From Cyclobacteriaceae bacterium (GTDB taxonomy: Bacteria > Bacteroidota > Bacteroidia > Cytophagales > Cyclobacteriaceae), in contig JAYTVB010000046.1 in the NCBI GenBank assembly GCA_043744235.1, positions 41,026 to 105,025 on the forward strand: DNA of 64,000 nucleotides, read 5' to 3'. The translations under genes were made by a program, and so were the position numbers. The notes beneath the pieces are model-generated. The model was not told where the DNA came from. It searched no databases and was given only the letters and a program-made list of their open reading frames with translations. Shown in pieces: positions 114-47,650 of the stretch; position 1 is the first letter of the stretch; each line of letters opens with the position of its first letter.

Positions 114-1346
114 ATGAAATTCAATCCGGCCCGCAGTATTCAAGACTTGCAGTACTTCGGCGAATTCGGCGGTGTAAACCCGTCGATCGAAGATTCTTCC
201 ACCTATACCTTTTTGAAGGCGGACAAGATGGAGGAGGTTTTTGAACGGGAAGTGGAAGGCTGCTACCTCTATTCCCGCCACTGGAATCCCACCAACCGTT
301 ACCTGAGCCAGGCCATCGCGAAAATGGAGAATGTGGAATCGGCCGTGGTCACCGCATCAGGGATGGGTGCCATTACATCAACACTGCTTCAATTGTGCAG
401 TCAGGGCGATGAAATAGTCTGCAGCAGGATGGTGTACGGCGGCACATATGCTTTCCTTAAAAATGTAGCCCCGCGGTTCGGGATCAAGACCCGTTTTGTG
501 AATATCCTGCGCCTGGATGAAATTGAAAAGGCCATTACGCCGGCTACACGACTGGTGTATTGTGAATCGGTAAGCAACCCGATGCTGGAAGTTTCCAATA
601 TCCCCGCCATCAGCCAATTGTGCAGGAAGAAGAACATCAGGCTTGTGGTGGACAACACCTTTACCCCAATGATCCTGACGCCAGCCAACCTCGGGGCAGA
701 CATTGTCATTCACAGCCTCACCAAGTTCATCAATGGCACCAGTGATACGGTGGCCGGCGTGGTGTGCGGCCCCAATGACTTCATTCATTCCCTCAGTGAT
801 GTGCACCATGGCATGGTCATGCTGCTCGGTCCGGTGATGGACAGCATGCGCTCTGCTTCTGTTCTCAAGAACCTGCACAGCCTGCACATCCGCATAAAAC
901 AGCACAGCAGGAATGCGCAGTACCTGGCGGAGAAACTTTCCCTGGAGGGCCTGAATGTTCGCTACCCCGGACTGCCGGATCATGCCGGGCATGACCTCAT
1001 AACAAAGATGATGAACCCGGGATTTGGCTATGGCGGAATGCTGGTGCTCAACATGAATACCCGCGAGAATGCCTATGCCCTGATGGAAAAGATGCAGCTG
1101 GCTAACCTCGGTTACCTGGCGGTCAGCCTTGGGTTCTACAAGACCTTGTTCAGTTCGCCAGGAAGCAGCACCTCTTCCGAGATACCCGAGGAGGAACGCG
1201 AAGCGATGGGCCTTTCAGAAGGACTGGTCAGGATAAGTGTGGGGCTTGACGCGTGCATTGAGGAATCATTTGAAAAGATGATGAAGTGTATCTCGGAGGT
1301 TTTGGAAGAACATGCACCCGTGTCACTGGCAGGTCAGGAACTTTAA
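114..1346 (+). CDS. Cys/Met-metabolism PLP-dependent enzyme (methionine gamma-lyase / O-acylhomoserine sulfhydrylase family)
   Basis: 410-aa ORF. PLP-lysine motif HSLTKFINGTSD. Family-typical YSRHWNPT and AVVTASGMGAI segments and length. Confidence 0.8.
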   Translation: MKFNPARSIQDLQYFGEFGGVNPSIEDSSTYTFLKADKMEEVFEREVEGCYLYSRHWNPTNRYLSQAIAKMENVESAVVTASGMGAITSTLLQLCSQGDEIVCSRMVYGGTYAFLKNVAPRFGIKTRFVNILRLDEIEKAITPATRLVYCESVSNPMLEVSNIPAISQLCRKKNIRLVVDNTFTPMILTPANLGADIVIHSLTKFINGTSDTVAGVVCGPNDFIHSLSDVHHGMVMLLGPVMDSMRSASVLKNLHSLHIRIKQHSRNAQYLAEKLSLEGLNVRYPGLPDHAGHDLITKMMNPGFGYGGMLVLNMNTRENAYALMEKMQLANLGYLAVSLGFYKTLFSSPGSSTSSEIPEEEREAMGLSEGLVRISVGLDACIEESFEKMMKCISEVLEEHAPVSLAGQEL

Positions 1347-1470: not shown

Positions 1471-3663
1471 ATGAGCCGGAAATTCCTGATTTTATTTTGC
1501 CTCCTCTCCATTACTGCATTCGGGCAGACCAAACCTGATTTGCCGGTTTGGAAACCAGCATGGGAAGAAACACGCCAGAATGATTGGCTACTTCAGACTC
1601 CAACCGTGAAGGCCAATGTCTTCAAATCAGAGGACGGCACCACCATTATCCTATACAATGGCCTCCTGAAGCGGGAGTTCGTCCTTTCACCCAATGTAGC
1701 GTGCGTGGACTTCAAAAACCTGAGCAGCGGACAACAATTGCTGAGGGCGGTAAAGCCGGAGGCGCGGATTACCATTCATGGAAGGTCTTTCAATATCGGA
1801 GGGCTTGTCGGGCAAAAGGAACATGCCTATTTCCAAAGGTCGTGGATGCCGAATCTGACAGCAGGCATCCATGACTTCAGGTTCATGGAATACGCTGTAT
1901 CTGACATCTCTCCCTTTCTCAAATGGAAGCCCAACACCTGGACAGGGAACCGCGTTCAGGCTACGGGCAAACATTTGTCTTTTATCTATCGGTCTCCATT
2001 GCCGGAATTGGATGGGCTTGCCGTTGTTGTGCACTATGAGCTGTATGACGGAATCCCATTGGTGGTGAAGTGGATCTCCGTTGAAAATAAGAGCAACAGG
2101 TCCTTTAAGCTTGACCGCGTCACCAATGAGGTACTGGGGCTCGTGGAGGAGGAGAGCGCCGTCGTGGGCCGACCGGATGAGATGAAGAAACAGCATGGCA
2201 TCTATGTCGAGACCAACTATGCCTTTAATAATGCCATGCGGTATGACATCAGCGACCAGACCACCCACTGGAATACGGATTCGGTATACACCTCGCAGGT
2301 GAACTACAATTACCAGACGCCCTGCCTGCTGGAAGTTTATCCGATGAAGGCACCGGGGATTGAACTTATGCCAGGTGAAACATTCAGGTCGGTGCGCACC
2401 CATGAGTTGTTGATGGACAGTTATGACCGTGAGCGCCGTGGACTCGCGATCCGCAGGATGTACCGTACGGTCGCCCCCTGGACCACCCAGAATCCCATCT
2501 TCATGCACCTTGTCAGCAAGAGCGATGATGAAGTGATGACGGCCATTGACCAGTGTGCCGCCACTGGCTATGAGGCCTTGATTTTGAGTTTTGGCAGTCA
2601 TTGCAACATGGAGGATACCTCGCGCGTCAATATTGAAAAATGGAGGAGACTGGCCGGGTATGCCCACAGCAAGAATATTCAGATTGGCAGCTACTCCCTT
2701 TTCAGCAGCCGCCGGATCAGCGATGCGGATGACGTGGTCGACCCAAAAACAGGCAAGCCTGGTGGTGCCTTCTTTGGCAATGCGCCCTGCTTTGGTAGCA
2801 AGTGGGGACTGGCTTATCGCGATAAAATCAAGTATTTCTTTGGAAGCACCGGTTTTGACATTTGGGAGAATGACGGTCCTTACCCGGGCGATGTCTGCGG
2901 GTCAACCAATCACCCTGGTCACAACGGACTGGAGGATTCACAATGGCGACAGATGGCGATACAAAAGGAACTTTACCACTGGATGAACGAAAGAGGCATA
3001 TACATCAATGCCCCTGACTGGTATTTCCTGGATGGCACAAACAAGATCGCCATCGGCTACCGGGAAGTGAATTTTTCATTGCCCCGTGAGCAGCAAATAA
3101 TTCTCAATCGCCAAAACATTTACGACGGTACCTGGGAAAAGACCCCTTCCATGGGCTGGGGATTTGTTCCCCTGACCAAATACCAGGGCGGCGGACCGGA
3201 AGCCGTGCTGGAACCGCTGAGCGAGCACCTGCGGGATTATCAACAATTGATGTTTCAATATTACGCAGCGGGAGTACAGGCCTGTTACCGGGGCCCAAGA
3301 CTGTATGATACGGATGTGACAAGGCAGGCGGTCAAGAGCATGATCGACTGGTACAAGAAGTACAGGGATATACTAAACGCGGACATCATCCACCTGCGCA
3401 GGGCCGACGGGCGGGACTGGGACGGTATTCTGCACGTGAGCCAGGATTTGAAACTAAAGGGAATGCTGCTGTTGTACAATCCAACAAAGGAAAAAATAGT
3501 CAGGACCATTAAGTTGCCTTTGTACTACACGGGTCTTTCCTCGGAAGCACGCATCAGCGAAAAAGGGAAACCTGCAATACGGTATTCGCTCGACCGTAAG
3601 TTGGAAGTTGATTTCACCTTTTCACTCGATGCTGACAGCTATCAATGGTATGTGATTGAGTAG
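1471..3663 (+). CDS. secreted protein of unknown function (weakly glycosidase/TIM-barrel-like)
   Basis: 730-aa uninterrupted ORF with an N-terminal signal peptide (MSRKFLILFCLLSITAFGQ). I recognise no catalytic motif with confidence. Confidence 0.6.
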   Translation: MSRKFLILFCLLSITAFGQTKPDLPVWKPAWEETRQNDWLLQTPTVKANVFKSEDGTTIILYNGLLKREFVLSPNVACVDFKNLSSGQQLLRAVKPEARITIHGRSFNIGGLVGQKEHAYFQRSWMPNLTAGIHDFRFMEYAVSDISPFLKWKPNTWTGNRVQATGKHLSFIYRSPLPELDGLAVVVHYELYDGIPLVVKWISVENKSNRSFKLDRVTNEVLGLVEEESAVVGRPDEMKKQHGIYVETNYAFNNAMRYDISDQTTHWNTDSVYTSQVNYNYQTPCLLEVYPMKAPGIELMPGETFRSVRTHELLMDSYDRERRGLAIRRMYRTVAPWTTQNPIFMHLVSKSDDEVMTAIDQCAATGYEALILSFGSHCNMEDTSRVNIEKWRRLAGYAHSKNIQIGSYSLFSSRRISDADDVVDPKTGKPGGAFFGNAPCFGSKWGLAYRDKIKYFFGSTGFDIWENDGPYPGDVCGSTNHPGHNGLEDSQWRQMAIQKELYHWMNERGIYINAPDWYFLDGTNKIAIGYREVNFSLPREQQIILNRQNIYDGTWEKTPSMGWGFVPLTKYQGGGPEAVLEPLSEHLRDYQQLMFQYYAAGVQACYRGPRLYDTDVTRQAVKSMIDWYKKYRDILNADIIHLRRADGRDWDGILHVSQDLKLKGMLLLYNPTKEKIVRTIKLPLYYTGLSSEARISEKGKPAIRYSLDRKLEVDFTFSLDADSYQWYVIE

Positions 3664-3722: not shown

Positions 3723-4343
3723 ATGAACCTTCAGCCAATATTCCCCCAATTCGATCCTGAACTCCTCAGGCACCTGGAAGAAATCGGACAGGTGGTTGAA
3801 TTTGAAGAGGGTGACATGCTCATGCGCCCAGGCCAATACTTCAAAAACTCTTTGTTGATTCTTGATGGCAGGGTGAAATTGTACCGTGACGGGGAAAACG
3901 GCGAGGAATTTTTCCTCTATTACCTCGAAAAGGGAAATGCCTGTGCCCTCTCCATGATTTGCGCTGCCAAGAATGAGTCCAGCGCCATCAAGGCGCGGGC
4001 CATGACCCGCGTTAAGGCGCTCGCCATACCCATTCATTACATGGATAGCCTGATGAAAGACCATACACAATGGTATTATTTTGTGCTTGAAACCTATCGA
4101 AGCAGGTTCAGTGAACTGCTGGAGGTTATTGACCAGGTGGTGTTTCATTCCATGGATGAAAAACTGGTGTTTTACCTGAAGCGCCAGTTCGAAGCGTTGG
4201 GAGACGGCATCCCCATCACCCACCAGGAAATAGCGGATGACCTCAACTCATCACGGGAGGTAATTTCCCGACTGCTTAAAAAACTGGAGTCGCAGAATAA
4301 AATCTCCATTTCCAGGAATATCATTACAAGGGTCAATTTCTGA
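3723..4343 (+). CDS. Crp/Fnr family transcriptional regulator
   Basis: cNMP-binding-type beta-roll segment (LILDGRVKLYRDGENGEEFFLYYLEKGNACAL). C-terminal HTH (THQEIADDLNSSREVISRLLKKLESQNKI). ATG 3723 is preferred over the in-frame GTG at 3684. Confidence 0.85.
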   Translation: MNLQPIFPQFDPELLRHLEEIGQVVEFEEGDMLMRPGQYFKNSLLILDGRVKLYRDGENGEEFFLYYLEKGNACALSMICAAKNESSAIKARAMTRVKALAIPIHYMDSLMKDHTQWYYFVLETYRSRFSELLEVIDQVVFHSMDEKLVFYLKRQFEALGDGIPITHQEIADDLNSSREVISRLLKKLESQNKISISRNIITRVNF

Positions 4344-4400
4344 CCACGCAAGCCTGCCCGTTTGGGTGAGCATATCTTCTGACAATGCAAGTGCGCGTTG

Positions 4401-4416
4401 TGTGACTTGAGTCACT
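4401..4416. promoter_or_regulatory. CRP/FNR-type box 1 (TGTGACTTGAGTCACT)
   Basis: Inverted repeat TGTGAC-N4-GTCAC, equivalent to TGTGA-N6-TCAC. It lies 131 bp upstream of the SQR-like gene. Confidence 0.55.
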
Positions 4417-4423
4417 GGCCTTG

Positions 4424-4439
4424 TGTGACCTGAGTCACA
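4424..4439. promoter_or_regulatory. CRP/FNR-type box 2 (TGTGACCTGAGTCACA)
   Basis: Both 6-bp arms TGTGAC/GTCACA are perfectly complementary; only the 4-bp spacer CTGA is asymmetric. It lies 108 bp upstream of the SQR-like gene and 23 bp centre-to-centre from box 1. Confidence 0.6.
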
Positions 4440-4546
4440 TAACTGCCTGATTTACTGATCAAAATCACTGGGTTTGGTGAGGACAATCATCATTTCGGAC
4501 TGGTTCCCCCCCATACTTTTACTTCCACACACAAACCAGTCAGATC

Positions 4547-5803
4547 ATGAAAAATATTGTCATTCTCGGAGCGGGAACAGCGGGGACCATGATGGCCAAC
4601 AAGCTCCACAAAGCAATCAACCGGAAGATCTGGGATATTACCATCATCGATAAGGATGCGAAGCACTACTACCAGCCCGGATTCCTCTTTATACCGTTCG
4701 GAATTTATCAACCCGAAGAAGTTGTTCGCACCAAAGCTGAATTCCTTCCAAAGGATGTCAATTTTATCCTGGATGAGATCAGCAGGATTGAGGGGGAAAA
4801 GAGCCAGGTTACCCTCAAGGGCGGGAGAACCATCCGATACGATGTTCTGATCATTGCCACCGGTGCCAATGTGGTCCCCGAAGAAACGCCCGGACTTATC
4901 GGTGATTTGTGGTACAAGGACATTTTTGACTTCTACACCTTTGAAGGCACCACGGCTTTGGCTAACAAATTCAAGGATTGGCAAGGCGGTAAGTTGGTCA
5001 TCAACCTCATGGAGACCACAATCAAGTGCCCGGTGGCTCCGCTTGAATTTGCCTTCCTGGCAGATGCCTTCTTTACTGAAAAGGGAATTCGGCACCTGGT
5101 TGACATCTCTTATGTCACCCCGCTTTCCGGCGCATTCACGAAGCCCAAGGCCACGAAAATGCTCAGCGCACTGCTGGAAGAAAAACACATTACCGTAGTA
5201 CCCGACTTTTACGTGCAGGAAGTTGACAATGCAAGAAAGGTCCTGGTCTCTTACGACCAGAAGGAAGTGCCTTTTGACTTGCTCGTGACAATCCCGGTAA
5301 ACAAGGGCGCTGACATGATTGGTTCAAGCGGCATGGGTGATGAGGATGGACTTAACTTCATTCCCACCGACAGGCAGACACTCCAATCCAAAAAATTTGA
5401 AAATGTATTCGTGATCGGTGACGCTACCAACGTGCCAGCATCGAAAGCAGGTTCAGTGGCTCACTTCGAAGGAGAAATCCTCCTGGAAAACATTCTGAGC
5501 TACATCAATAACCTGCCGCTTGAGGCCAAATTTGACGGACATGCCAATTGCTTTATAGAAACGGGATATGGCAAAGCTGCCCTCATTGACTTTAACTACA
5601 CCACCGAACCGCTGGCGGGAAAATTTCCGTGGCCGGTTGTCGGCCCCATGGGTCTGCTGAAAGTTACGCGGGCCAATCACCTGGGCAAGCTGGCGTTCCG
5701 TTGGGTTTACTGGCACATGTTACTCACCGGAAAAAACCTGCCGGTCAGTACGCACATGTCCATGGCCGGGAAAGAAGTTGACAAAGAAGTAAACACGCAT
5801 TAA
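4547..5803 (+). CDS. sulfide:quinone oxidoreductase-like FAD-dependent oxidoreductase
   Basis: N-terminal Rossmann motif IVILGAGTAGT and second dinucleotide motif VFVIGDATN. The only two Cys (KCPVAP near residue 161, HANCFIETG near residue 335) sit where SQR redox cysteines are expected. Confidence 0.75.
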   Translation: MKNIVILGAGTAGTMMANKLHKAINRKIWDITIIDKDAKHYYQPGFLFIPFGIYQPEEVVRTKAEFLPKDVNFILDEISRIEGEKSQVTLKGGRTIRYDVLIIATGANVVPEETPGLIGDLWYKDIFDFYTFEGTTALANKFKDWQGGKLVINLMETTIKCPVAPLEFAFLADAFFTEKGIRHLVDISYVTPLSGAFTKPKATKMLSALLEEKHITVVPDFYVQEVDNARKVLVSYDQKEVPFDLLVTIPVNKGADMIGSSGMGDEDGLNFIPTDRQTLQSKKFENVFVIGDATNVPASKAGSVAHFEGEILLENILSYINNLPLEAKFDGHANCFIETGYGKAALIDFNYTTEPLAGKFPWPVVGPMGLLKVTRANHLGKLAFRWVYWHMLLTGKNLPVSTHMSMAGKEVDKEVNTH

Positions 5804-5827
5804 TCAAGACACATAAAACCAATCTAT

Positions 5828-6139
5828 ATGGAAACCTTAATCATGAACCTCGCACAAGTTGAAAGAAATGAGGAGGGATATTTGAAGAAAGTATCCGACT
5901 GGACTCCTGATCTCGCGCATGAAATTGCCAGGGAAGCCGGCATCACGCTCACCGACAAGCATTTTGAAGTGCTGAACTGGCTTCGGGCCAAACAAGCCGA
6001 AGGAGTGGCACTGAGCATCAGAAAAATGGGTGCCTCCGGAATCGTTGATATCAAGCAGTTCTACGCATTGTTTCCGGGTGGACCGCTGAAGATCTCCAGC
6101 AAGATTGCCGGCATTCCCAAACCCGTCAGCTGCATTTAG
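5828..6139 (+). CDS. TusE/DsrC-family sulfur relay protein (single-Cys, TusE-like)
   Basis: 103 aa. C-terminal arm KIAGIPKPVSCI closely matches the TusE/DsrC terminus as I remember it. There is no second Cys about 10 residues upstream. Confidence 0.8.
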   Translation: METLIMNLAQVERNEEGYLKKVSDWTPDLAHEIAREAGITLTDKHFEVLNWLRAKQAEGVALSIRKMGASGIVDIKQFYALFPGGPLKISSKIAGIPKPVSCI

Positions 6140-6181
6140 ACATCATTTAAAAAACATCAAAGTCCAAAGGACACCAACATT

Positions 6182-6715
6182 ATGAACGATCTAGTGGATA
6201 TGGCTCAACCCAAGGTTACCCCGGCACAAAAAATGGAGAAACCGAAAGTAAAAAAAGTGCTGATCATATGCTCGAAGGGAAAAATTGAAGACGTATATGC
6301 TGCATTGGTTATGGCCAACGGCGCCCTGATGGAAGGCATTGAAGCCAAAATGTTCTTTACCTTCTTTGGCCTCGAAGCCATCACCAAAAAGCATGCTGAT
6401 CACCTGCATACCGCGACCGTCGGCAACCCGGCATTCATGCCTGCGATGCCGACCATGGTTGCCGGTCTTCCCGGATTTGAGGCTTTCGCATCCTACATGA
6501 TGAGAAAGGAAATGGATAAACTGGACATGCCGCATGTAACCGAATTCCTGCAAATGATTGATGCGGGCGGTGGAGAAATTTATGCCTGCAAACTGGCTGC
6601 TGATATGTTCCATCTTAAGAAAGAGGATTTTCTGCCTGAAGTGAAGGGGATAATCACCGTGGGTGATATGTATGCCCTGGCTGACGGTGTAGGTACTCAA
6701 ATCATTTTCATCTGA
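6182..6715 (+). CDS. DsrE/DsrF-like family protein
   Basis: 177 aa. VLIICSKGKIEDVYAALVMANGAL and FFTFFGL segments, plus a conserved Cys in GEIYACKLA. Confidence 0.7.
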   Translation: MNDLVDMAQPKVTPAQKMEKPKVKKVLIICSKGKIEDVYAALVMANGALMEGIEAKMFFTFFGLEAITKKHADHLHTATVGNPAFMPAMPTMVAGLPGFEAFASYMMRKEMDKLDMPHVTEFLQMIDAGGGEIYACKLAADMFHLKKEDFLPEVKGIITVGDMYALADGVGTQIIFI

Positions 6716-6742
6716 TTGGTTTTAGTGTGTTGGGATGGAAAC

Positions 6743-6779
6743 AGGCCGCTGGAACTTAGGTTCTGGCGGCCTTCGTTTT
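6743..6779 (+). terminator. intrinsic terminator after the SQR-TusE-DsrE unit
   Basis: Stem AGGCCGC (6743-6749) / GCGGCCT (6766-6772), followed by TCGTTTTG. Confidence 0.5.
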
Positions 6780-6809
6780 GCAGGAAAAATCAAGCCGATT
6801 TTTCGCCTG

Positions 6810-6825
6810 CGTAACCCAAGTCACA
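6810..6825. promoter_or_regulatory. CRP/FNR-type box 3 (CGTAACCCAAGTCACA)
   Basis: Half-degenerate box with the same spacing, 71 bp upstream of the HMA gene. It nearly equals the reverse complement of box 5. Confidence 0.45.
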
Positions 6826-6895
6826 GACCCAAATCATGTTGCAGCCGATATTTGTGTCAGCATGCCGATAAACACATTATTTAGACACTGACACC

Positions 6896-7174
6896 ATGAT
6901 GAAAACGCAGATTTTGGTTGAAAACCTGAAGTGCAACGGCTGTGCCAATACGATCAGGAAGGCGCTCTCTCAGTTGGAGGGTGTCTCAAAGGTTGAAGTG
7001 GATGTTGTAGAAGGCCGTGTTGATGTTGATTTTGGTGATTCGATAGCATCGGAATCCATCAAACAGAAATTATCCCAACTGGGATATCCTGAAGTTGATG
7101 CCCTGCGTGGCCTCAACAAGGTGGCAGCTAATGCCAGGTCGTTTGTCAGCTGTGCAGTGGGAAGAGTTTCATAG
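6896..7174 (+). CDS. heavy-metal-associated (HMA) domain protein, CopZ-like
   Basis: 92 aa. Metal-binding loop LKCNGCANTIRKAL (CxxC) in a ferredoxin-like pattern. Confidence 0.75.
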   Translation: MMKTQILVENLKCNGCANTIRKALSQLEGVSKVEVDVVEGRVDVDFGDSIASESIKQKLSQLGYPEVDALRGLNKVAANARSFVSCAVGRVS

Positions 7175-7203
7175 AATAAGATAGAATTTTAGAGTGATAG
7201 GTG

Positions 7204-7416
7204 ATGAAGAAGTGGACCATGCTAGGATTGGGATTGGTGCTTGGCGCAGCTGGCGGATACCTGTACTGGTATTACGTGGGATGTGTGAGTGGCAGCTGCG
7301 CCATCACTTCTTCAGCGGTCAACAGTTCACTGTACGGCGGAATGATGGGCACTTTGCTCGTTAACGCGTTCGCTCCAGTCTCGAAAAAGGCCCCAAACAC
7401 AAGGGAACCTGGATAA
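7204..7416 (+). CDS. small membrane protein with CxxxxC motif (DUF6132-like)
   Basis: About 70 aa with two hydrophobic helices flanking YYVGCVSGSCAITSS. It is 30 bp downstream of the HMA gene. Confidence 0.55.
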   Translation: MKKWTMLGLGLVLGAAGGYLYWYYVGCVSGSCAITSSAVNSSLYGGMMGTLLVNAFAPVSKKAPNTREPG

Positions 7417-7450
7417 ATTCCCCTGAATCCTGACGAAAATTCAGTTTGGA

Positions 7451-7466
7451 AGTGACCAAAGTCATC
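7451..7466. promoter_or_regulatory. CRP/FNR-type box 4 (AGTGACCAAAGTCATC)
   Basis: Degenerate box with the same spacing, 115 bp upstream of the DUF2892 gene. Confidence 0.4.
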
Positions 7467-7516
7467 TGAATTGGCTGGCGGGCCGGATAGCTTTGATTCT
7501 AACCACCTTAGGTCTG

Positions 7517-7532
7517 TGTGACCTGGGTTACT
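7517..7532. promoter_or_regulatory. CRP/FNR-type box 5 (TGTGACCTGGGTTACT)
   Basis: Same spacing, 49 bp upstream of the DUF2892 gene. It is the mirror image of box 3 (GTAAC variant arm). Confidence 0.45.
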
Positions 7533-7580
7533 GATTAACTTCCGGCGAGCCGGTAATATTGAGGAAACATAAAAAACACT

Positions 7581-7808
7581 ATGAAAAAGAATATGGGTAA
7601 TGCTGATCGGATTGTCAGGTTGATAATCTCAGCTGTTTTAGTTTGGATGTATGCTACGGGCGTTATTGAAGGTACTTTGGGGATCGTGCTGATTGCATTG
7701 TCCGCTGTGTTCGTTCTAACCAGCCTCGTGAGCTTCTGTCCGTTGTATTTGCCGTTTGGCCTGAGCACCAGGAAAAACAACGAAGCAACTCCTGAAGTAA
7801 AAAAATAG
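7581..7808 (+). CDS. DUF2892 (YgaP-like transmembrane domain) protein
   Basis: 75 aa. MGNADRIVRLIISAVL...SFCPLY signature and two TM helices. Confidence 0.75.
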   Translation: MKKNMGNADRIVRLIISAVLVWMYATGVIEGTLGIVLIALSAVFVLTSLVSFCPLYLPFGLSTRKNNEATPEVKK

Positions 7809-7817
7809 GCAGAGAAG

Positions 7818-8135
7818 ATGTTTGATTCAATTAAAAATATGCTGGGGCTGGGTCCCCAGGCAGATTACGCTGCGCTGGTGAAACAAGGCGCCATTATCCT
7901 GGACGTGCGCAGCAAAGGTGAATACACTGGCGGCCACATCAGGGGTTCAGTCAATGTACCGGTAGACCAGCTGCAACGGAATTTAAGCCGGTTTCCGGAC
8001 AAGCAAAAACCAATCATTACCTGCTGTGCCTCAGGCGGACGCAGTGCCTCGGCCAAAAGTATTTTAAAGTCCAGTGGATATGTCAATGTTCACAATGGTG
8101 GAAGCTGGACAGGACTCAAAAGCAAAATTTCATAA
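7818..8135 (+). CDS. rhodanese-like sulfurtransferase domain protein
   Basis: 105 aa. Active-site loop CCASGGRS and GGHIRGSVNVP. Confidence 0.85.
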   Translation: MFDSIKNMLGLGPQADYAALVKQGAIILDVRSKGEYTGGHIRGSVNVPVDQLQRNLSRFPDKQKPIITCCASGGRSASAKSILKSSGYVNVHNGGSWTGLKSKIS

Positions 8136-8138
8136 TAT

Positions 8139-8606
8139 ATGGACCCCCATGTTTATCATGTCGATATCGCCTGGAGCAAAGACCGCAAAGGGATGATGTG
8201 TTCCCCGGATTTGGGCAAAGATGGCGCGCCTTTTGGCGGCTGCATTGAAGTGGCTACCCCTCCTGAGTTTCCCAAAGGAATCCCCGGCATTTGGTCGCCT
8301 GAGCATTTGTTTACCGCCTCCATCAGCAGCTGCCTGATGACCACCTTCCTGGCGATTGCCGAAAACTCGAAACTGGATTTTGTTTCCTTCAAGTGCGGAT
8401 CCAAAGGCAAACTCGAGCAAGTGGATGGAAAATTCATGATGTCTGAAGTAATACTGGAGCCGCAGGTGGTGGTACGGGACGAGAAGGACGTGGAGAAGGC
8501 ATTGAAAGTCCTGCAGAAATCCGAGGCGAATTGCCTGATTTCTAACTCCGTCAAGGCCAGGATCATCATGAACCCGGTTGTGCATGTTGAAATGGTTAAC
8601 GTATAA
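8139..8606 (+). CDS. OsmC/Ohr-family protein
   Basis: 155 aa. SPEHLFTASISSCLMTTF and EANCLISNSV (two-Cys OsmC pattern). Confidence 0.75.
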   Translation: MDPHVYHVDIAWSKDRKGMMCSPDLGKDGAPFGGCIEVATPPEFPKGIPGIWSPEHLFTASISSCLMTTFLAIAENSKLDFVSFKCGSKGKLEQVDGKFMMSEVILEPQVVVRDEKDVEKALKVLQKSEANCLISNSVKARIIMNPVVHVEMVNV

Positions 8607-8917
8607 TGAATATGTCCAGTGTATCGTTTTCACAATTGATACAGAGCGAAAAGCCAACCTTTGTTGATTTCTCGGCTGAGTGGTGCGGACCATGCAAGAT
8701 GATGGCACCCGTCCTGGAAGAACTGAAATCCAAAGTAGGGGACAAGGCAAAAGTAATCAAGGTGGATGTTGACAGGAATCCTTCTGCGGCCGCCGCTTAC
8801 CAGGTTCGGACAGTGCCTACCCTGATGATTTTCAAGAACGGGCAAGTAGTGTGGAGGCAGTCGGGGGTGGTCCCTTCGGCCTACCTGAAACGGGTCATCG
8901 AGCAGCACTACAACTAG
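8606..8917 (+). CDS. trxA: thioredoxin
   Basis: 103 aa. WCGPCK active site. Its start overlaps the OsmC-like stop. Confidence 0.9.
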   Translation: MNMSSVSFSQLIQSEKPTFVDFSAEWCGPCKMMAPVLEELKSKVGDKAKVIKVDVDRNPSAAAAYQVRTVPTLMIFKNGQVVWRQSGVVPSAYLKRVIEQHYN

Positions 8918-8961: not shown

Positions 8962-9753
8962 TTGGATATGGTGCATTCATGGGATTCGGTAAGATTACTG
9001 GCACTTCTTCCCATATGCTGTTTCCTCACCATTCCTTCATTTTCTCAGATTGATTCGTTTGGAGCGGATTCATCAAAGATGAAATCCGTTGATTATGATA
9101 CCTCCGGGTACCATGACCGCTTTCATATATACATCTATCCGCAGGTAGCCATACCGCTGGGCGAACTGCGGCAGGTTATCCAGAATACCTACGGCAATGT
9201 TGGCATCGGCGTTGCGATTGGCGCCATGGTCAACCCGATGCCCAGGAACAAGCCTTCCCCTTTTCTGATCGGCCTCGATTTTGGATACCTCATCTACGGC
9301 GTAGACAAGATTCCTGCCAATGCGGTTCATGGCAACATCAAATCTTCTTTCAATGTCTATTCCATTGGTATCTCCGGCCGGTTGATGGCCAGCCAGCACA
9401 AAAAATTTACCCCTTTTATAGATGGTGTGCTGGGAGCAAAAATATTCAACGTAACCACAAAGATTGATAAGAACCTCATTCAGACGCTCGTCAATTCTGA
9501 TCCGGAAGTCATTGATTCCTATGACAACGCCACCTTAAGTTATTCAGTGGGTGTGGGGTTCTTCAACCGAAGGCCCGGCAATAACTTCGGACGTGGTTCA
9601 TTCTCCGTGCGCTTTCTCTATACCTGGGGCATGGAAACAAAGTACGTGCCCCGGAACTCTGTTTACATTGATGCAAACAACAACATTCAGTACTCGACCG
9701 ACAATACGCATACCGACATGTTCCTGATTCAATTCGGCCTGATGCTTTACTAA
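8962..9753 (+). CDS. hypothetical secreted / outer-membrane beta-barrel-like protein
   Basis: 263-aa ORF (TTG 8962 or ATG 8968). Signal-like LLALLPICCFLTIPSFSQ, alternating beta-strand-like pattern and an aromatic C-terminus. Confidence 0.55.
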   Translation: MDMVHSWDSVRLLALLPICCFLTIPSFSQIDSFGADSSKMKSVDYDTSGYHDRFHIYIYPQVAIPLGELRQVIQNTYGNVGIGVAIGAMVNPMPRNKPSPFLIGLDFGYLIYGVDKIPANAVHGNIKSSFNVYSIGISGRLMASQHKKFTPFIDGVLGAKIFNVTTKIDKNLIQTLVNSDPEVIDSYDNATLSYSVGVGFFNRRPGNNFGRGSFSVRFLYTWGMETKYVPRNSVYIDANNNIQYSTDNTHTDMFLIQFGLMLY

Positions 9754-10388
9754 TGACGCATATGGAAACCAGGGATCATTGGGATAAAATCTATTTGACC
9801 AGGCAGCCAACAGAGGTTAGTTGGACCCAGGCTGTTCCAGAAACCTCCCTGAATCTGATTCATTCCTTTGGTCTACCGCGGACTGCGGGCATCATTGATA
9901 TTGGCGGCGGGGACAGCAAATTGGTCGACTTCCTGCTGGATGAAGGATTCGAAGACATCACGGTTCTTGACATTTCAGAACATGCGCTCTCCAGGGCCAA
10001 AGTACGATTGGGCAAAAGGGCGAATCAAATCAAGTGGATAATATCTGATATTACCACTTTCGAGCCTGATCGAGAATATGACCTGTGGCATGATCGTGCC
10101 GCCTTTCATTTTCTGACTGCGCCAATACAGGTTGTCAAATACATCGGCACAGCCCTCCGCTGTGTACCCGAAGGTGGCTATGTCATTATCGGTACATTTT
10201 CAGAAACGGGCCCTGATAAATGCAGCGGGCTTGAAATCCGGAAGTATTCCGAAGCAATGCTGCAGGAAGAACTGTCCAGGGGTTTCAAAAAGCTGAAGTG
10301 CCTGACGGAAGACCACGTCACTCCGTTTGGGAAAATTCAAAATTTTATCTTCTGCGGTTTCCAAAGGACAAAAGCATCATCCTTGTAA
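9753..10388 (+). CDS. class I SAM-dependent methyltransferase
   Basis: 211 aa. Motif I IIDIGGGDSKL. Its start overlaps the stop of the upstream ORF. Confidence 0.75.
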   Translation: MTHMETRDHWDKIYLTRQPTEVSWTQAVPETSLNLIHSFGLPRTAGIIDIGGGDSKLVDFLLDEGFEDITVLDISEHALSRAKVRLGKRANQIKWIISDITTFEPDREYDLWHDRAAFHFLTAPIQVVKYIGTALRCVPEGGYVIIGTFSETGPDKCSGLEIRKYSEAMLQEELSRGFKKLKCLTEDHVTPFGKIQNFIFCGFQRTKASSL

Positions 10389-10887: not shown

Positions 10888-12549
10888 TTAATGTTCTGCC
10901 GCAGTTGCCTTGATGCTGATGGCCATCCTCAAGGCCTCATAGGCATTCACCAGCCCGCCGCTGTTGCTCAGGGCATTGAAATCGGTCTTGCCACCGCCTG
11001 GCTTTTCCACTTTTAGTCCATCGAACCTTCTGCCGGATTTTTTCAGGATATCAATGATTTGTAACGAGGAGAGCTCGGGGAAGTATGAAAGCAGCAGGGC
11101 GGCCACACCGGTGGCAGTAGGCGCCGCCATGCTGGTGCCGCTCATGCTTTTATATTGATTGCCGGGGATGGTGGCGTAGATATCAACTCCCGGTGAAAAC
11201 ACATCGACCGATTTCTTTCCGTAATTCGAGAAATCAGCCACCAGGTTTTCATCGGAGTTCCAGCTGGAAGCGCCTACCTCCAGCCAGTTTTTGGCTTCCT
11301 TTCCGTCGAGGTAATAGCGGGAGGGAAAATCTTTCTGGACATCGATGTCCTGGCTGTCGTTGCCGGCCGCATGCACCAGGATGACTCCTTTTTGTTCGGC
11401 GTACCGGACGGCTTCATCCACCACGTCCTTGTTGGGTGAAAAGCCTTTTCCAAAGCTCATGTTCACAATCATCGCGCCGTTGTCAACGGCATACCGGATC
11501 GCATTGGCCACATCCTTGTCGCGCTCGTCGCCGTTGGGCAGCATCCGCACAGACATGATTCGCACATGATCGGCAATGCCTTTGATTCCCAGGTTGTTGG
11601 TGCGATCGGCCGCGATGGTGCCGGCTACATGGGTCCCGTGACTGGCATCGGGTCCTTTCACATCGTTGTTGCCATAGTGCTTTTCCCGCGGATTGCTGTA
11701 GTCATCTCCCACAATGGCACGGGGGTTGAATTCCTCGTTGTATCCGTATTCAACCATGGAGGCATACTCATCCAGGCCTTCCTTGTAGTAGGCCACGGAT
11801 TCTTTCCAGTTGATGACCATGGAGTCAACATCCGTCTCGCCTGTATTCTTCAGCATCCGCATGATGAGTCCTTTGTTGAACAGGAGGTTGGGATCGGTTG
11901 TCTTCATTGTGATCACATCTTCGGGTGTCAGCTTCTCTTTGTGAAGGACTGACTTGAGGGTGTCGACGCTCTCCACCAGGTTTTTTTCGAGGTTGGCATA
12001 CAGGGTATACTGCTGCCTGAACCGGTTGTATTGCTCTGACTCTTTAGCCTTGCGCTCTTCGAATTTTTCCTTGTAGGATTTATATAATTCGTAATCCCGC
12101 TTTTCTTTTTTCGGAACGGTCTTTTCAGCGAGGGTGCTGAACTTGCTTTTCAGCCTGACGTACTCGCGGGTGAGTTCGTACGTGTCATCATTCACATTGC
12201 CTTCTTTTCCACCGATGAAGTTCCATCCATGGACGTCATCGATGTACCCGTTTTTGTCGTCGTCGATGCCATTCCCGGGGATTTCATTTGGGTTGGTCCA
12301 GATGACACTTTTCAAATCCTCGTGATCGGTATCAACCCCCGTGTCCACCACCGCGACAATGACCGTCCGGGCCAGCCGGTCTTTGAGCAGGGTCTCATAG
12401 GCCCTTTCGACACTGAGTCCCTGAACGTGGTTTGTTTCAGGATCGCGCAGGTACCAGTCAGCGGGAGGATCCGCCGCCGTTTGCGATAAAGCGTTGAAAA
12501 AGCCACCCAGTATGAACAGGCTGCCGAGTAATGTGGTACGGTGCTTCAT
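10888..12549 (-). CDS. S8 family (subtilisin-like) serine peptidase
   Basis: 553 aa with a signal peptide. Catalytic triad motifs VAVVDTGVD, HGTHVAGTIAA and SGTSMAAPTATG. Confidence 0.9.
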   Translation of the reverse strand: MKHRTTLLGSLFILGGFFNALSQTAADPPADWYLRDPETNHVQGLSVERAYETLLKDRLARTVIVAVVDTGVDTDHEDLKSVIWTNPNEIPGNGIDDDKNGYIDDVHGWNFIGGKEGNVNDDTYELTREYVRLKSKFSTLAEKTVPKKEKRDYELYKSYKEKFEERKAKESEQYNRFRQQYTLYANLEKNLVESVDTLKSVLHKEKLTPEDVITMKTTDPNLLFNKGLIMRMLKNTGETDVDSMVINWKESVAYYKEGLDEYASMVEYGYNEEFNPRAIVGDDYSNPREKHYGNNDVKGPDASHGTHVAGTIAADRTNNLGIKGIADHVRIMSVRMLPNGDERDKDVANAIRYAVDNGAMIVNMSFGKGFSPNKDVVDEAVRYAEQKGVILVHAAGNDSQDIDVQKDFPSRYYLDGKEAKNWLEVGASSWNSDENLVADFSNYGKKSVDVFSPGVDIYATIPGNQYKSMSGTSMAAPTATGVAALLLSYFPELSSLQIIDILKKSGRRFDGLKVEKPGGGKTDFNALSNSGGLVNAYEALRMAISIKATAAEH

Positions 12550-12984: not shown

Positions 12985-12987
12985 AAG

Positions 12988-13069
12988 TGCCGAAGGCGGG
13001 ACTCGAACCCGCATACCTTGCGGCACACGCCCCTGAAACGTGCGTGTCTACCAATTTCACCACTTCGGC
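12988..13069 (-). tRNA. tRNA-Leu (anticodon CAG)
   Basis: I folded the cloverleaf manually. Acceptor GCCGAAG, D-arm GTG/CAC, anticodon stem CACGT/GCGTG with loop TTCAGGG, long variable arm, T-arm GGGTTCGAGTCCC. No encoded CCA. Confidence 0.85.
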
Positions 13070-13115
13070 GTTCTCCTCACCCTCTCCAAACGGGAGAGGT
13101 GCAGGGGTGAGGTTG

Positions 13116-13197
13116 TGCCCGGGACTGGACTCGAACCAGCATACCTTACGGCATACGCCCCTCAAACGTACGTGTCTACCAATTTCACCACCCGGGC
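13116..13197 (-). tRNA. tRNA-Leu (anticodon GAG)
   Basis: I folded the cloverleaf manually. Acceptor GCCCGGG, anticodon stem TACGT/GCGTA with loop TTGAGGG, long variable arm, T-loop GGTTCGAGTCC. Confidence 0.85.
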
Positions 13198-13625: not shown

Positions 13626-14327
13626 ATGTTGTACTGGGAAGCCAAAAAAAACCCGCGCGCAGACCTGAATCGGGTACGTCCCCTGATCTTCAGCGTCAGT
13701 CTGGTCATTACGATGCTCCTTGCCATCACTGCATTTGAATGGAAAACCTATGACAAACCGGGAGAGCTGCTGGCGCAAAAGCACAAGAATGATTTTGAGC
13801 AGATACTGGATATACCACCGACAGAAATAGCGCCGCCGCCACCGGTGAATGTAAAGGTGCCGGTGATCATTGAGGTGTCCGACGAGGAGGAAATACAAAA
13901 GGAAGTGAATGTTGACCTGGATATGGAGATGACCAGCGAGACGGTGATGCAGACCTATACGTACAAAGCACCCGAACCGCCCAAGATTGAAGAGGAAGAA
14001 TCAGAGAAGATATTCGTGGTGGTTGAACAGACTGCGGCACCGCGCGATGGCATGGCAGCCTTTTACAAGTATGTATCTGAAAACATTCACTATCCGGGGC
14101 AAGCCAGGCGCATGGGCATTGAGGGCAGGGTATTTGTCCAGTTTGTGGTGGGCAAAGACGGTTCACTTTCTCAAATGGAGGTCATTAAGGGAATCGGCGT
14201 TGGATGTGATGAGGAAGCCCTCCGCATCATTACGAATTCTCCACCCTGGCAGCCGGGCAAGCAGCGGGGCAAGCCGGTGAGGCAGCGCATGGTGCTCCCG
14301 ATCTTTTTCAGACTGGAGAGAATTTAG
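13626..14327 (+). CDS. TonB family energy transducer
   Basis: 233 aa. N-terminal TM helix, Pro/Glu-rich linker and C-terminal TonB domain YPGQARRMGIEGRVFVQFVVGKDGS. Confidence 0.85.
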   Translation: MLYWEAKKNPRADLNRVRPLIFSVSLVITMLLAITAFEWKTYDKPGELLAQKHKNDFEQILDIPPTEIAPPPPVNVKVPVIIEVSDEEEIQKEVNVDLDMEMTSETVMQTYTYKAPEPPKIEEEESEKIFVVVEQTAAPRDGMAAFYKYVSENIHYPGQARRMGIEGRVFVQFVVGKDGSLSQMEVIKGIGVGCDEEALRIITNSPPWQPGKQRGKPVRQRMVLPIFFRLERI

Positions 14328-14840: not shown

Positions 14841-15018
14841 ACACAACTGCTGGGGTGGGTGTATATGTGATATGAGCTACGAATAATGGTTAAGTAAGAC
14901 ATTTCGACCCTGGCTTGGAGGCGTCTTTCAACCTTTCCACCGATTCCCTGACTTTGAAATTACTTTAAAATCAAAAAAGAAGGCAGCCACACTTGCATGT
15001 AACTGCCTCATATTTAAG

Positions 15019-15090
15019 AGCCGAGAATCAGGATTGAACTGACGACCTGCTGATTACGAATCAGCTGCTCTACCGCTGAGCTACCTCGGC
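15019..15090 (-). tRNA. tRNA-Thr (anticodon CGT)
   Basis: 72-nt cloverleaf folded manually. Acceptor GCCGAGG, D-arm GCTC/GAGC, anticodon stem GCTGA/TCAGC with loop TTCGTAA, T-loop TTCAATC. Confidence 0.85.
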
Positions 15091-46279: not shown

Positions 46280-47650
46280 CTAGGAGGTCATGGCCTTCAG
46301 AATATCATGCTGGGTGATGATGTGAACTTTCCGGGAGTCATCGCGGACCAGGAGCGCCTTGTTGTTTCTGTTCAGCATTGACGACAACACATCCAGGGTT
46401 GTATCCAGCGCGACAAACTGCATCGGTTTGTCCATTAGGTCTCCAACGGTATTGTCCTTCACCGCTGGATTTTCAATTATTCTTTCAAGCAGGGAAGCCG
46501 AAGCAACACTGCCGACAAACTCATCATCATCGACTACCGGCACCTGGTCAATGCCCTGCTGGTTCATGATCTTGATAGCCTCTCCGATCCGCGCGCTCTT
46601 CTTCACGGTGAACAGTCCGTCTGTCACGTTTCGGTGACGGATGATGTCCCGGGCAGATGCAAAAACCCGCTCCTCCAGGAACCCGTGGTCCTTCATCCAG
46701 TTATCGTTGTAGACCTTGTTCAGGTACCGTGTGCCGTGGTCGGGAAGCAGGACGACCATGGTATCGTTTTTGGTCAGGTGTTCCCGCGCGTATTCCAGGG
46801 CACCGTGCATGGCAGAGCCGCTGCTCCAGCCCACAAACAAGCCTTCCTCCCGTGACAACCTGCGTGCCATGATGGCGCCGTCTTTGTCGGTGACCTTGAT
46901 GAATCGGTCAATCACATCAAAGTCAACATTTTTGGGCAGGATGTCTTCCCCGAAACCCTCCGTGAGGTAAGGGTATATCTCATTCCTATCGAAAATGCCG
47001 GTTTCCTTGTACTTCTTAAAAACGGAACCATAGGTATCAATTCCCACCGTCACCAGCGAAGGGCTCTGTTCTTTCAGAAACCTGGCGGTACCGCACATGG
47101 ATCCGCCCGTTCCGACAGTGGCTGCATAGTGTGTGATTTTTCCTGCGCTCTGCCTCCAGATTTCAGGCCCGGTGGCTTCGTAGTGCGCCGCCGTGTTGGA
47201 AAGGTTATCGTATTGGTTGGGATAATAGGAATTGGGAATGTCCTTGTTCAGTTTCCGCGCCACGGAATAATACGAGCGGGGGTCTTCAGGCTCAACATTG
47301 GTCGGGCATACAATTACTTCGGCGCCGACGGCCTTCAGGATATCGATCTTCTCCTGGGATTGCTTATCGGCCATCGTGAAAATGCACTTGTACCCTTTGG
47401 CAATCGCGGTCAATGCGAGGCCCATGCCCGTGTTGCCCGACGTGCCTTCGATGATGGTTCCGCCGGGTTTCAGGATGCCGGCCTTTTCTGCGTCCTCAAC
47501 CATTTTCAATGCCATCCTGTCCTTAGTGGAGTTCCCGGGGTTGAAGTACTCCACCTTTACCAGGATGGTGCCGGCGATGCCGCGGTTGAGTTTATTGATC
47601 CTGATCATCGGCGTATTTCCAATGGTCTCCACAATGGAATTGTAAATCAT
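46280..47650 (-). CDS. cystathionine beta-synthase-type PLP enzyme (CysK/CBS fold + tandem CBS domains)
   Basis: 456 aa. PLP-lysine context NPGNSTKDRMAL and GTSGNTG. The C-terminal ~130 aa has a CBS-pair pattern. Confidence 0.8.
   Translation of the reverse strand: MIYNSIVETIGNTPMIRINKLNRGIAGTILVKVEYFNPGNSTKDRMALKMVEDAEKAGILKPGGTIIEGTSGNTGMGLALTAIAKGYKCIFTMADKQSQEKIDILKAVGAEVIVCPTNVEPEDPRSYYSVARKLNKDIPNSYYPNQYDNLSNTAAHYEATGPEIWRQSAGKITHYAATVGTGGSMCGTARFLKEQSPSLVTVGIDTYGSVFKKYKETGIFDRNEIYPYLTEGFGEDILPKNVDFDVIDRFIKVTDKDGAIMARRLSREEGLFVGWSSGSAMHGALEYAREHLTKNDTMVVLLPDHGTRYLNKVYNDNWMKDHGFLEERVFASARDIIRHRNVTDGLFTVKKSARIGEAIKIMNQQGIDQVPVVDDDEFVGSVASASLLERIIENPAVKDNTVGDLMDKPMQFVALDTTLDVLSSMLNRNNKALLVRDDSRKVHIITQHDILKAMTS

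Follow-up and report, generated by a model that had tools for sequence, protein, structure and literature searches.

A type III sulfide:quinone reductase island of a Cyclobacteriaceae bacterium as a probable part of a modular Bacteroidota sulfide regulon with a Crp/Fnr-family regulator

Firmicutes carry the cst and yrkD-pdo clusters, which comprise CstR/YrkD, DsrE (YrkE), rhodanese (YrkF), persulfide dioxygenase (PDO; YrkH/CstB), TusA (YrkI), TauE (YrkJ) and thioredoxin (YdfQ) together with sulfide:quinone reductase (SQR) and PDO, and which are induced by sulfane sulfur (PMC9918477). In E. coli, a persulfide-responsive ArsR-type regulator is paired with a membrane rhodanese (YgaV-YgaP; PMC9774250, PMC4730233). 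Another group of sulfur carriers, DsrE4, was introduced in 2014 with Mcup_1724 as the prototype and is defined by its gene position downstream of SQR (PMC4175335); its proposed role is reactive-sulfur detoxification (PMC11094781), and it was never characterised. In metagenomic surveys of marine sediments, no other SQR type is as abundant as type III (PMC12345210). High abundance in sediments has been described for both type III SQR and type III PDO, and the latter occurs in metagenome-assembled genomes of Bacteroidota (PMC9163753, PMC12345210). Despite this abundance, the partners and regulation of type III SQR are unstudied. The reactive-sulfur sensors in the literature that we examined (CstR/YrkD, SqrR/BigR/YgaV, OxyR and NreBC) belong to families other than Crp/Fnr. 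Here we analyse a gene island at positions 3723-8917 of a 64 kb stretch of contig JAYTVB010000046.1 from a Cyclobacteriaceae bacterium (64,000 nucleotides, hereafter the window), in which a gene for a Crp/Fnr-family regulator precedes an SQR gene and eight further genes. The cst and yrkD-pdo clusters are the closest known systems to this island. We consider it probable, judging from sequence comparisons, that the island is the local part of a modular sulfide and reactive-sulfur regulon of Bacteroidota under a Cys-bearing Crp/Fnr regulator. A first-pass annotation, made from the letters of the window, had presented the island as a candidate undescribed system. Its overall design is already known from cst and yrkD-pdo (PMC9918477); what sets it apart is the regulator family, the triad of SQR, TusE and DsrE-like genes, and the HMA, DUF6132 and OsmC-like members.

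The regulator gene and the nine genes behind it were confirmed as open reading frames (ORFs) on one strand at the places previously drawn. The features are as follows (lengths in amino acids, aa).

3723-4343, plus strand: Crp/Fnr-family regulator, 206 aa (PF00027, PF13545 and PF00325 above cutoffs)
4402-4438, no strand: tandem pair of operator palindromes in front of SQR, GTGACTTGAGTCAC and GTGACCTGAGTCAC (motif scan)
4547-5803, plus strand: predicted type III SQR, 418 aa (NF049943; Pyr_redox_2)
5828-6139, plus strand: single-Cys TusE/DsrC-family sulfur carrier, 103 aa (PF04358, TIGR03342)
6182-6715, plus strand: DsrE2B-like (DrsE_2) sulfur carrier, 177 aa (PF13686)
6743-6772, plus strand: terminator-like hairpin closing the SQR-TusE-DsrE operon (13-pair stem, T-rich tail)
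6811-6824, no strand: operator copy GTAACCCAAGTCAC upstream of HMA (motif scan)
6896-7174, plus strand: HMA-domain protein, 92 aa, CNGC (PF00403)
7201-7416, plus strand: DUF6132 small membrane protein, CVSGSC (PF19628)
7452-7531, no strand: pair of operators preceding the third operon, with GTGACCAAAGTCAT at 7452 and GTGACCTGGGTTAC at 7518 (motif scan)
7581-7808, plus strand: YgaP-like transmembrane (TM) protein (DUF2892), 75 aa, FCPLY (PF11127)
7818-8135, plus strand: single-domain rhodanese, 105 aa, active-site loop C70ASGGR (PF00581)
8139-8606, plus strand: OsmC-like protein, 155 aa (PF02566)
8606-8917, plus strand: thioredoxin, 103 aa, WCGPC (TIGR01068)
9753-10388, plus strand: possible extra member, S-adenosylmethionine-dependent methyltransferase, 211 aa (identity to an Aquimarina methyltransferase, given below)

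In the profile hidden Markov model search that the first-pass annotation had called for, all ten ORFs pass the Pfam gathering scores of the families assigned to them. The Cys motifs it listed are likewise all present: SQR has C161 and C335 and TusE has C102, with no other Cys in either protein; the DsrE-like protein has YAC136KLA, HMA C13NGC16, DUF6132 C28VSGSC33, the YgaP-TM protein FC53PLY, the rhodanese C69C70ASGGRS and the thioredoxin WC27GPC30. One count had to be corrected, as the OsmC-like protein contains five Cys and not two, namely the canonical pair C65 and C132 and three more. Two further Cys were not on the list, the conserved C30 of the DsrE-like protein and C86, the third Cys of HMA. 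By inspection, signal peptides are absent from all island products, which is consistent with a cytoplasmic relay at the inner membrane face.

The flavoprotein of the island is assigned as a type III SQR. It reaches 637.7 bits against the curated model NF049943 ('type III sulfide quinone reductase'; cutoff 525) over residues 2-410, its FAD-binding GxGxxG motif begins at residue 8, and it lacks a signal peptide. The best solved relative is human SQOR (E 1e-41), with whose two conserved Cys C161 and C335 align. Both residues are invariant in 81 of 81 orthologues, and the third cysteine of type I enzymes is missing. This arrangement is in line with the catalytic Cys reported for type III SQR at about Cys159 and Cys331-339 (PMC10989961, PMC13047784). 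Together with the NF049943 score, the matching Cys positions make an NDH-2-type enzyme, the alternative named in the first-pass annotation, unlikely, and its SQR-like flavoprotein with two Cys at SQR positions can now be given a type.

SQR forms a fixed triad with the TusE and DsrE-like genes. A scan with one genome per species yielded 80 loci with an SQR orthologue (67-88% identity), mostly from Cytophagales (Cyclobacteriaceae, Ohtaekwangia, Chryseolinea, Marivirga and Fulvivirga) and a few from Rhodothermales. TusE directly follows SQR in every locus (80/80), and the DsrE-like gene follows TusE in 77/80; it is not seen on a contig of only 1.6 kb (L071) and in two loci where no more than about 350 bp of contig remains beyond the SQR match (L076, L080). 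All window proteins were compared with these loci by tblastn, and the neighbouring ORFs were then clustered all against all. Beyond the triad, no neighbouring ORF recurs in more than 14 of the 80 loci, and the usual neighbours are housekeeping genes, for example Pth, ribosomal protein L25, PRPP synthetase and MetRS. The other window genes are found rarely (regulator and rhodanese in three loci each; HMA, DUF6132 and OsmC in two each), and among the 80 the regulator and accessory genes adjoin the triad in L008 and L009 only. Counting the window itself and L081, the six accessory genes and the regulator stand beside the triad in these four loci only. The notion of the nine genes as one co-conserved system was thus rejected, the triad being the only block kept in related loci. 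The broad protein search returned only SQR relatives of at least 73% identity, and the type III contexts of other phyla lie outside this sample. More distant SQR-like genes (about 33% identity, not orthologues) on haloarchaeal and Chloroflexota plasmids adjoin TusA, TauE, rhodanese and DsrE-like genes. Taken with the triad, this arrangement indicates a general, unstudied theme, in which SQR-type enzymes go together with protein carriers of sulfur. In eight of the 80 loci (L012, L017 and six others), a divergent gene about 540 bp upstream of SQR encodes a 110-aa winged-helix protein, PadR-like by eye, which might act locally there as a second regulator.

The two small proteins of the triad keep their reactive Cys. 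TusE matches PF04358 with 85.3 bits (cutoff 24.9) and TIGR03342 with 73.3 bits (cutoff 53.5), and ends in ...KPVSC102I, where the Cys is penultimate. C102 is invariant in 71 of 71 orthologues, 69 of which contain no other Cys. An assignment as bona fide DsrC was rejected, since the second Cys, about 10 residues upstream, is replaced by Ser relative to 2xsj_C (SSKIAG/GACKMAG). The DsrE-like protein scores 98.4 bits against PF13686 (cutoff 25), and among solved structures it comes closest to 2qs7, which is DsrE2B from S. solfataricus (naming from PMC4175335). In the alignments, C136 stands opposite the Cys of 2qs7 and of 3pnx; it is kept in 73 of 74 sequences, C30 in 72 of 74. The protein was not accepted as a DsrE2 equivalog (NF047629, 76.9 bits against a cutoff of 210). 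The position downstream of SQR that defines DsrE4 recurs in the same 77 loci, a likeness of gene context alone.

Carriers of these families also act in biosynthesis, and the pair might serve tRNA 2-thiouridine formation, as TusBCD-TusE do in E. coli, with the adjacency of SQR being incidental. The TusE/DsrC family model is matched, as is, more weakly, the E. coli TusE equivalog. However, the latter match (NF008562, 62.3 bits) falls far below its cutoff of 191, so that an E. coli-type TusE was rejected as well; no TusB, TusC or TusD gene adjoins the triad in the window or in the 80 loci, and no MnmA gene is adjacent. The linkage to SQR in 80/80 loci and the shared sulfide-type operator also speak against a thiolation role, which we regard as very improbable.

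The operator ties the triad to the other island genes. The motif GTGACNNNNGTCAC, allowing at most one mismatch, has five sites in the 64 kb window, whereas 1.5 are expected from shuffles. All five (4402, 4425, 6811, 7452 and 7518) fall between genes of the island, in the three gaps 4344-4546, 6716-6895 and 7417-7580, which together measure 547 bp. The single palindromic operator type of the first-pass annotation is therefore real and non-random; its palindrome reads GTGAC-N4-GTCAC. Spacing within the triad is short (24 nt between SQR and TusE, 42 nt between TusE and DsrE), and the hairpin at 6743-6772 combines a stem of 13 pairs, including eight G-C pairs, with a T-rich tail behind it. Because the five operators are confined to the three gaps and the hairpin comes after DsrE, the island is predicted to consist of three transcription units of a common operator type: SQR-TusE-DsrE, HMA-DUF6132 and YgaP-TM-rhodanese-OsmC-thioredoxin. 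In the related loci, the 250 bp in front of SQR contain the operator at a density of 1.54 per kb, about 80 times that of the remaining sequence (0.019 per kb; at most one mismatch). With at most two mismatches, the operator lies within 250 bp upstream of SQR in 62 of 78 loci, clustered at about -130 to -110. The consensus in relatives is T-GT(G/A)AC-N4-GT(C/T)AC-A, i.e. TGTRAC-N4-GTYACA. Since most of the triad loci have no regulator gene nearby, the regulator would have to act on them from elsewhere in the genome. The SQR assignment and the operator placement together support the sulfide or sulfane-sulfur module under one operator type that had been suggested for the island.

The regulator has only two Cys, C74 and C80, both in its cyclic nucleotide (cNMP)-binding-like domain. 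FNR proper possesses a four-Cys ligand set for its Fe-S cluster. The window protein was rejected as CRP, FNR or NtcA proper, with scores of 47.4 (cutoff 266), 18.3 (228) and 57.9 bits (245), respectively. Many Cytophagales have an orthologue of about 80% identity, and those of Flavobacteriaceae share about 42%. The relatives number 3,922 among 50%-identity representatives; in the best 136 full-length sequences of these (30-70% identity), 130 have C74, 74 have C80, and the recognition helix SSREVISRLLKK is nearly unchanged. The nearest solved relative, 3dv8, is an uncharacterised Crp/Fnr protein that keeps both Cys.

About a dozen neighbourhoods of the regulator were sampled, and in seven genomes (L083, L086, L087, L088, L091, L092 and L093) its gene is located directly upstream of TauE. 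A gene encoding a Lactamase_B domain fused to a rhodanese domain comes directly after TauE in six of the seven and about 7 kb downstream in L092. This fusion is assigned as a CstB-like PDO-rhodanese, because it matches the CstB-type structures 3r2u (S. aureus) and 3tp9 (Alicyclobacillus) and also ETHE1. In L083, L086, L087 and L088, the order is regulator, TauE and a fusion protein of 470-505 aa, which is followed by varying mixes of rhodanese, DUF6132, LysE, Sulf_transp, an RND operon and YgaP-TM-rhodanese-OsmC(-thioredoxin). The operator is found in six of the seven loci, where it precedes TauE, PDO, DUF6132, RND pump, YgaP-TM and Sulf_transp genes. In L083, which comes from a complete Cytophagales genome of 6.1 Mb, a transposase gene (Y1_Tnp, IS200-like; 11052-11513) separates the regulator from the TauE operon, with the TauE operator kept.

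A regulator relative of 42% identity led to Flavobacteriaceae, namely Mesonia, Aquimarina, Aequorivita and Polaribacter. Regulator-TauE loci of this family were seen in Urechidicola croceus (L091), Mesonia phycicola (L092) and an Aquimarina sp. (L093), which places the regulon in both Cytophagales and Flavobacteriaceae. In Urechidicola and Aquimarina the operator reads GTAAC-N4-GTTAC, the A/T form of the same palindrome, and precedes the TauE and PDO genes; in Urechidicola it also precedes an RND operon, which comes with a YgaP-TM gene, and Sulf_transp genes. Sulf_transp genes lie near the regulator locus in Aquimarina as well. No operator was seen in the one region of Mesonia inspected. As judged from these loci, the operator is confined to the putative promoters of sulfide-regulon operons in two orders.

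Taking the observed family memberships, gene linkage, and placement and conservation of the operator as a starting point, we propose that the regulator, a candidate sensor of the regulon, would bind the TGTRAC-N4-GTYACA boxes in front of each operon. Its signal would be sulfide or persulfide, possibly sensed via C74/C80 in the cNMP-binding-like domain. From the first operon, the cytoplasm-facing type III SQR would oxidise H2S and deliver the electrons to the quinone pool, and the sulfane sulfur formed on its C161/C335 would be taken up by C136 of the DsrE2B-like protein and C102 of TusE. The precedents DsrEFH to DsrC and TusBCD to TusE (PMC3397948) make a transfer from DsrE to TusE likely, giving SQR to DsrE-like to TusE as the presumed direction. 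HMA and DUF6132 of the second operon would be an accessory pair, and the YgaP-TM, rhodanese, OsmC-like and thioredoxin proteins of the third would move persulfides and polysulfides or clear them reductively. Finally, a CstB-like PDO-rhodanese would oxidise the sulfur to sulfite and TauE would export it; we infer that both are encoded in this genome outside the window.

Several points weigh against this proposal. By tblastn with the proteins of the relatives, neither PDO nor TauE is encoded in the 64 kb window. The only DsrE2B tried in vitro was unreactive with all sulfur compounds offered (PMC4175335). In addition, HMA and the RND pumps of relatives fit a response to metals or toxic compounds equally well as one to sulfur.

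The first-pass annotation had likewise seen no PDO, TauE, Hdr, Sox or Dsr genes. Pfam searches agree for the last three, finding no such domains in the flanks of the island or among 27 ORFs of at least 250 aa beyond position 14000, a set that excludes five overlapping ORFs in this length range and, outside the island, every shorter one. It had concluded that the usual partners are lacking and that the fate of the sulfur is unclear. The seven genomes in which orthologues of the regulator adjoin TauE and PDO-rhodanese tell otherwise: with the regulator directly upstream of these genes in relatives, gene placement is the most likely reason why the window lacks them. On a different account, the triad is a self-sufficient, PDO-independent route, in which TusE/DsrE deliver the sulfur to some other enzyme that oxidises or assimilates it, or in which it is simply kept or exported in the form of polysulfide, and the window island works without PDO and TauE. 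In most of the 80 loci, the triad indeed stands alone as a three-gene operon surrounded by housekeeping genes, no PDO lies within reach of the window-type islands (window, L008, L009 and L081), and the plasmid SQR-like genes of haloarchaea and Chloroflexota pair with TusA, DsrE-like and rhodanese genes, with no PDO annotated in two 11 kb stretches. However, a single contig of 507,359 bp contains both the triad (L045) and the Crp-TauE-PDO genes (L086), about 170 kb apart and under the same operator, which is found at -116 of the SQR triad in L045. Moreover, DUF6132 and YgaP-TM-rhodanese-OsmC-thioredoxin sit within the PDO/TauE clusters of L083 and L087, and the window ORFs scanned include no Hdr, Dsr or Sox gene. 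We consider the PDO-independent route unlikely.

The YgaP-TM-rhodanese-OsmC-thioredoxin order is identical in L083, where a site equivalent to the third-operon operators of the window lies 60 bp upstream of the YgaP-TM gene. The DUF6132, YgaP-TM, rhodanese, OsmC and thioredoxin proteins of the window are 64-76% identical to the L083 copies, YgaP-TM reaching 76%. L081, whose regulator is 86% identical, has the same island as the window minus thioredoxin. DUF6132 (PF19628, 29.6 bits against a cutoff of 23.2) carries its CVSGSC between two hydrophobic stretches; homologues occur inside the TauE/PDO clusters of L083 and L087, and the L087 copy has its own operator in front. The YgaP-TM protein (PF11127, E 1.7e-19) is encoded directly upstream of rhodanese-OsmC in L081, L083 and L084. 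A YgaP membrane rhodanese was rejected, as TM domain and rhodanese are here separate adjacent genes with the TM gene first; phmmer against solved structures gave no YgaP match for the TM protein, so that the link to YgaP is by Pfam alone. The closest solved relatives of the rhodanese include the rhodanese domains of the CstB-type PDO fusions 3tp9 and 3r2u, and PspE. The OsmC-like protein (PF02566, 50.4 bits; cutoff 27.5) shares C65 and C132 with 2onf, is closest in structure to the uncharacterised Ta0195 and VCA0330, and stays below every subfamily cutoff (OsmC 26.4 against 85.8, Ohr 20.8 against 88.9, SACOL1771 51.8 against 166). The thioredoxin scores 114.4 bits against TIGR01068 (cutoff 96.8).

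The NCBIfam matches of the island proteins include selenoprotein counterparts, namely SQR_III_seleno (above its cutoff), a UxxU metal-binding protein, rhodanese_LYCAU, OsmC_like_Se, a HUIPC thioredoxin-like protein and TsoB. The window proteins all carry Cys, not selenocysteine, and the same redox toolkit seems to exist in selenocysteine form in other lineages. In several relatives, an operator-preceded RND operon (OEP, adaptor and ACR_tran) is followed by YgaP-TM (L084, 11799-17446; L086, 14541-20041; L087, 14177-19879; L091, 1617-7324). In the Ohtaekwangia loci L084 and L085, the order is operator, RND operon and YgaP-TM-rhodanese-OsmC. The window has no such pump; the operators in front of these operons suggest that the regulon includes an exporter in those relatives.

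Such pumps raise the question of whether the regulon responds mainly to thiophilic metals and metalloids (Cu, Hg, Se or Te) or to general thiol stress, with the Cys-bearing regulator sensing a metal or an electrophile and the sulfur enzymes being secondary. The CxxC-bearing HMA protein has an operator-controlled operon of its own, the RND operons behind operators in L084, L086, L087 and L091 have CusB/CzcB-like adaptor domains, the methyltransferase downstream of the island shows weak TehB matches, and several island families have selenoprotein versions in NCBIfam. Against this, the genes tied most constantly to the regulator are TauE and PDO-rhodanese, and the one tied most constantly to the operator is SQR, all of them specific for sulfide, persulfide or sulfite. 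HMA (PF00403, 56 bits) is present outside the window in L008, L009 and L081 only, making four loci in all, and its scores fall below the cutoffs of the CopZ (47.5 against 91 and 42 against 95) and MerP models. No metal ATPase or reductase lies under the operator. A metal or general thiol-stress regulon thus appears quite improbable, and a sulfide and reactive-sulfur regulon remains the reading we prefer.

Several genes flanking the island may be related to it. The methyltransferase is 48% identical (E 3e-77) to the Aquimarina protein encoded at 12245-12880 of L093, between PDO-rhodanese and Sulf_transp genes. As a member of the regulon, the window enzyme could methylate thiols, sulfide or metalloids; in front of its gene, no operator was found at up to one mismatch. 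MddH, a known H2S methyltransferase, is a UbiE-family protein (PMC11445057), and such an activity is not claimed for the window protein, which gave generic methyltransferase domains and weak NodS and TehB matches. The ORF between thioredoxin and methyltransferase (8962-9753, 263 aa) belongs to no Pfam or NCBIfam family.

Upstream of the regulator, a Cys_Met_Meta_PP pyridoxal-phosphate (PLP) enzyme is encoded at 114-1346 (plus strand), with its best matches to methionine gamma-lyase models, all below cutoff. A second PLP enzyme (PALP+CBS; 46280-47650, minus strand) resembles cystathionine beta-synthase. PLP enzymes of Cys and Met metabolism can release H2S or methanethiol, and these two may be internal sources of sulfide for the regulon. 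The SQR triad of L001 is immediately followed by a gene for a protein weakly related (30% identity) to the first enzyme. Between this enzyme and the regulator lies a 730-aa ORF with an N-terminal signal-like sequence (1471-3663, plus strand), for which no Pfam or NCBIfam match was obtained at E 0.001. Downstream of the island, the opposite strand carries a Peptidase_S8 gene (10888-12549, minus strand), as in L008 and L081, so that these three share local synteny. Further downstream are two adjacent tRNA-Leu genes (anticodons CAG and GAG; 12987-13197, minus strand) and a tRNA-Thr gene (CGT; 15018-15090, minus strand).

The triad kept across 80 species gives a concrete, testable answer to the question of what accepts SQR sulfur. 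We tentatively advance a further, joint proposal, which we hold to be possible, at somewhat under an even chance: that Crp/Fnr proteins with Cys74 (and Cys80) are a new class of thiol-based sulfide or persulfide sensor controlling a phylum-wide Bacteroidota regulon through GTRAC-N4-GTYAC, and that SQR hands its sulfur directly to the DsrE-like protein and then to TusE, and not to a small thiol. Direct hand-over from type III SQR, if it takes place, would identify the physiological acceptor of a bacterial SQR. If the regulator does sense persulfide, Crp/Fnr would be added to the sensor families, and the operator motif could serve to predict sulfide-responsive Bacteroidota genes, including DUF6132, the OsmC-like protein and the conserved methyltransferase. 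If the operons proved unresponsive to sulfide, the locus would be an ordinary redox gene cluster.

In full-text searches of the literature, whose coverage is incomplete so that absence is not proof, we found no paper dealing with DUF6132, with an operon of SQR, TusE and DsrE, or with control of sqr or pdo by a Crp/Fnr protein. Within that coverage, the regulator family, the fixed SQR(III)-TusE-DsrE triad and the HMA, DUF6132 and OsmC-like members would be the new elements. Like cst and yrkD-pdo, the island unites SQR, a DsrE homologue, a small sulfur carrier, rhodanese and thioredoxin under a dedicated regulator with repeated operators, and the regulons of relatives add the PDO-rhodanese fusion and TauE. 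It differs from these clusters in the regulator (Crp/Fnr family instead of the CsoR-like CstR/YrkD), the SQR (type III instead of type II) and the small carrier (TusE/DsrC family instead of TusA). Furthermore, its genes are spread across several operons and loci, it has the additional HMA, DUF6132, YgaP-TM and OsmC-like members, and PDO and TauE are not in the window.

The remaining known systems each share a part of this design. As with DsrE4, the SQR operon includes a downstream gene for a DsrE-type protein whose active-site Cys is conserved; here, however, a TusE gene lies between the two, and the nearest solved relative is DsrE2B (2qs7). In the SQR-PDO-rhodanese pathway of heterotrophs, known from the Xun/Xia laboratory, SQR also makes sulfane sulfur, rhodaneses shuttle it, PDO converts it to sulfite and TauE exports the product (PMC9163753, PMC12345210), but the carriers are pictured as small-molecule thiols, whereas here invariant protein carriers are encoded beside SQR and a Crp/Fnr regulator is present. 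The association of a rhodanese with a YgaP-type TM domain under a sulfide-linked regulator recalls YgaV-YgaP, with the differences that rhodanese and TM domain are separate genes, the TM gene coming first, and that the regulator is of another family. Finally, the Rhd-TusA-DsrE2 and DsrEFH-DsrC relays (Allochromatium vinosum; PMC3397948, PMC11094781) resemble the proposed one in that rhodanese and DsrE-type proteins pass sulfur to an acceptor of the DsrC/TusE type with a C-terminal Cys. Genes for DsrAB, sHdr and LbpA were not found here; in contrast to those relays, the acceptor is without the second DsrC Cys and the donor appears to be SQR.

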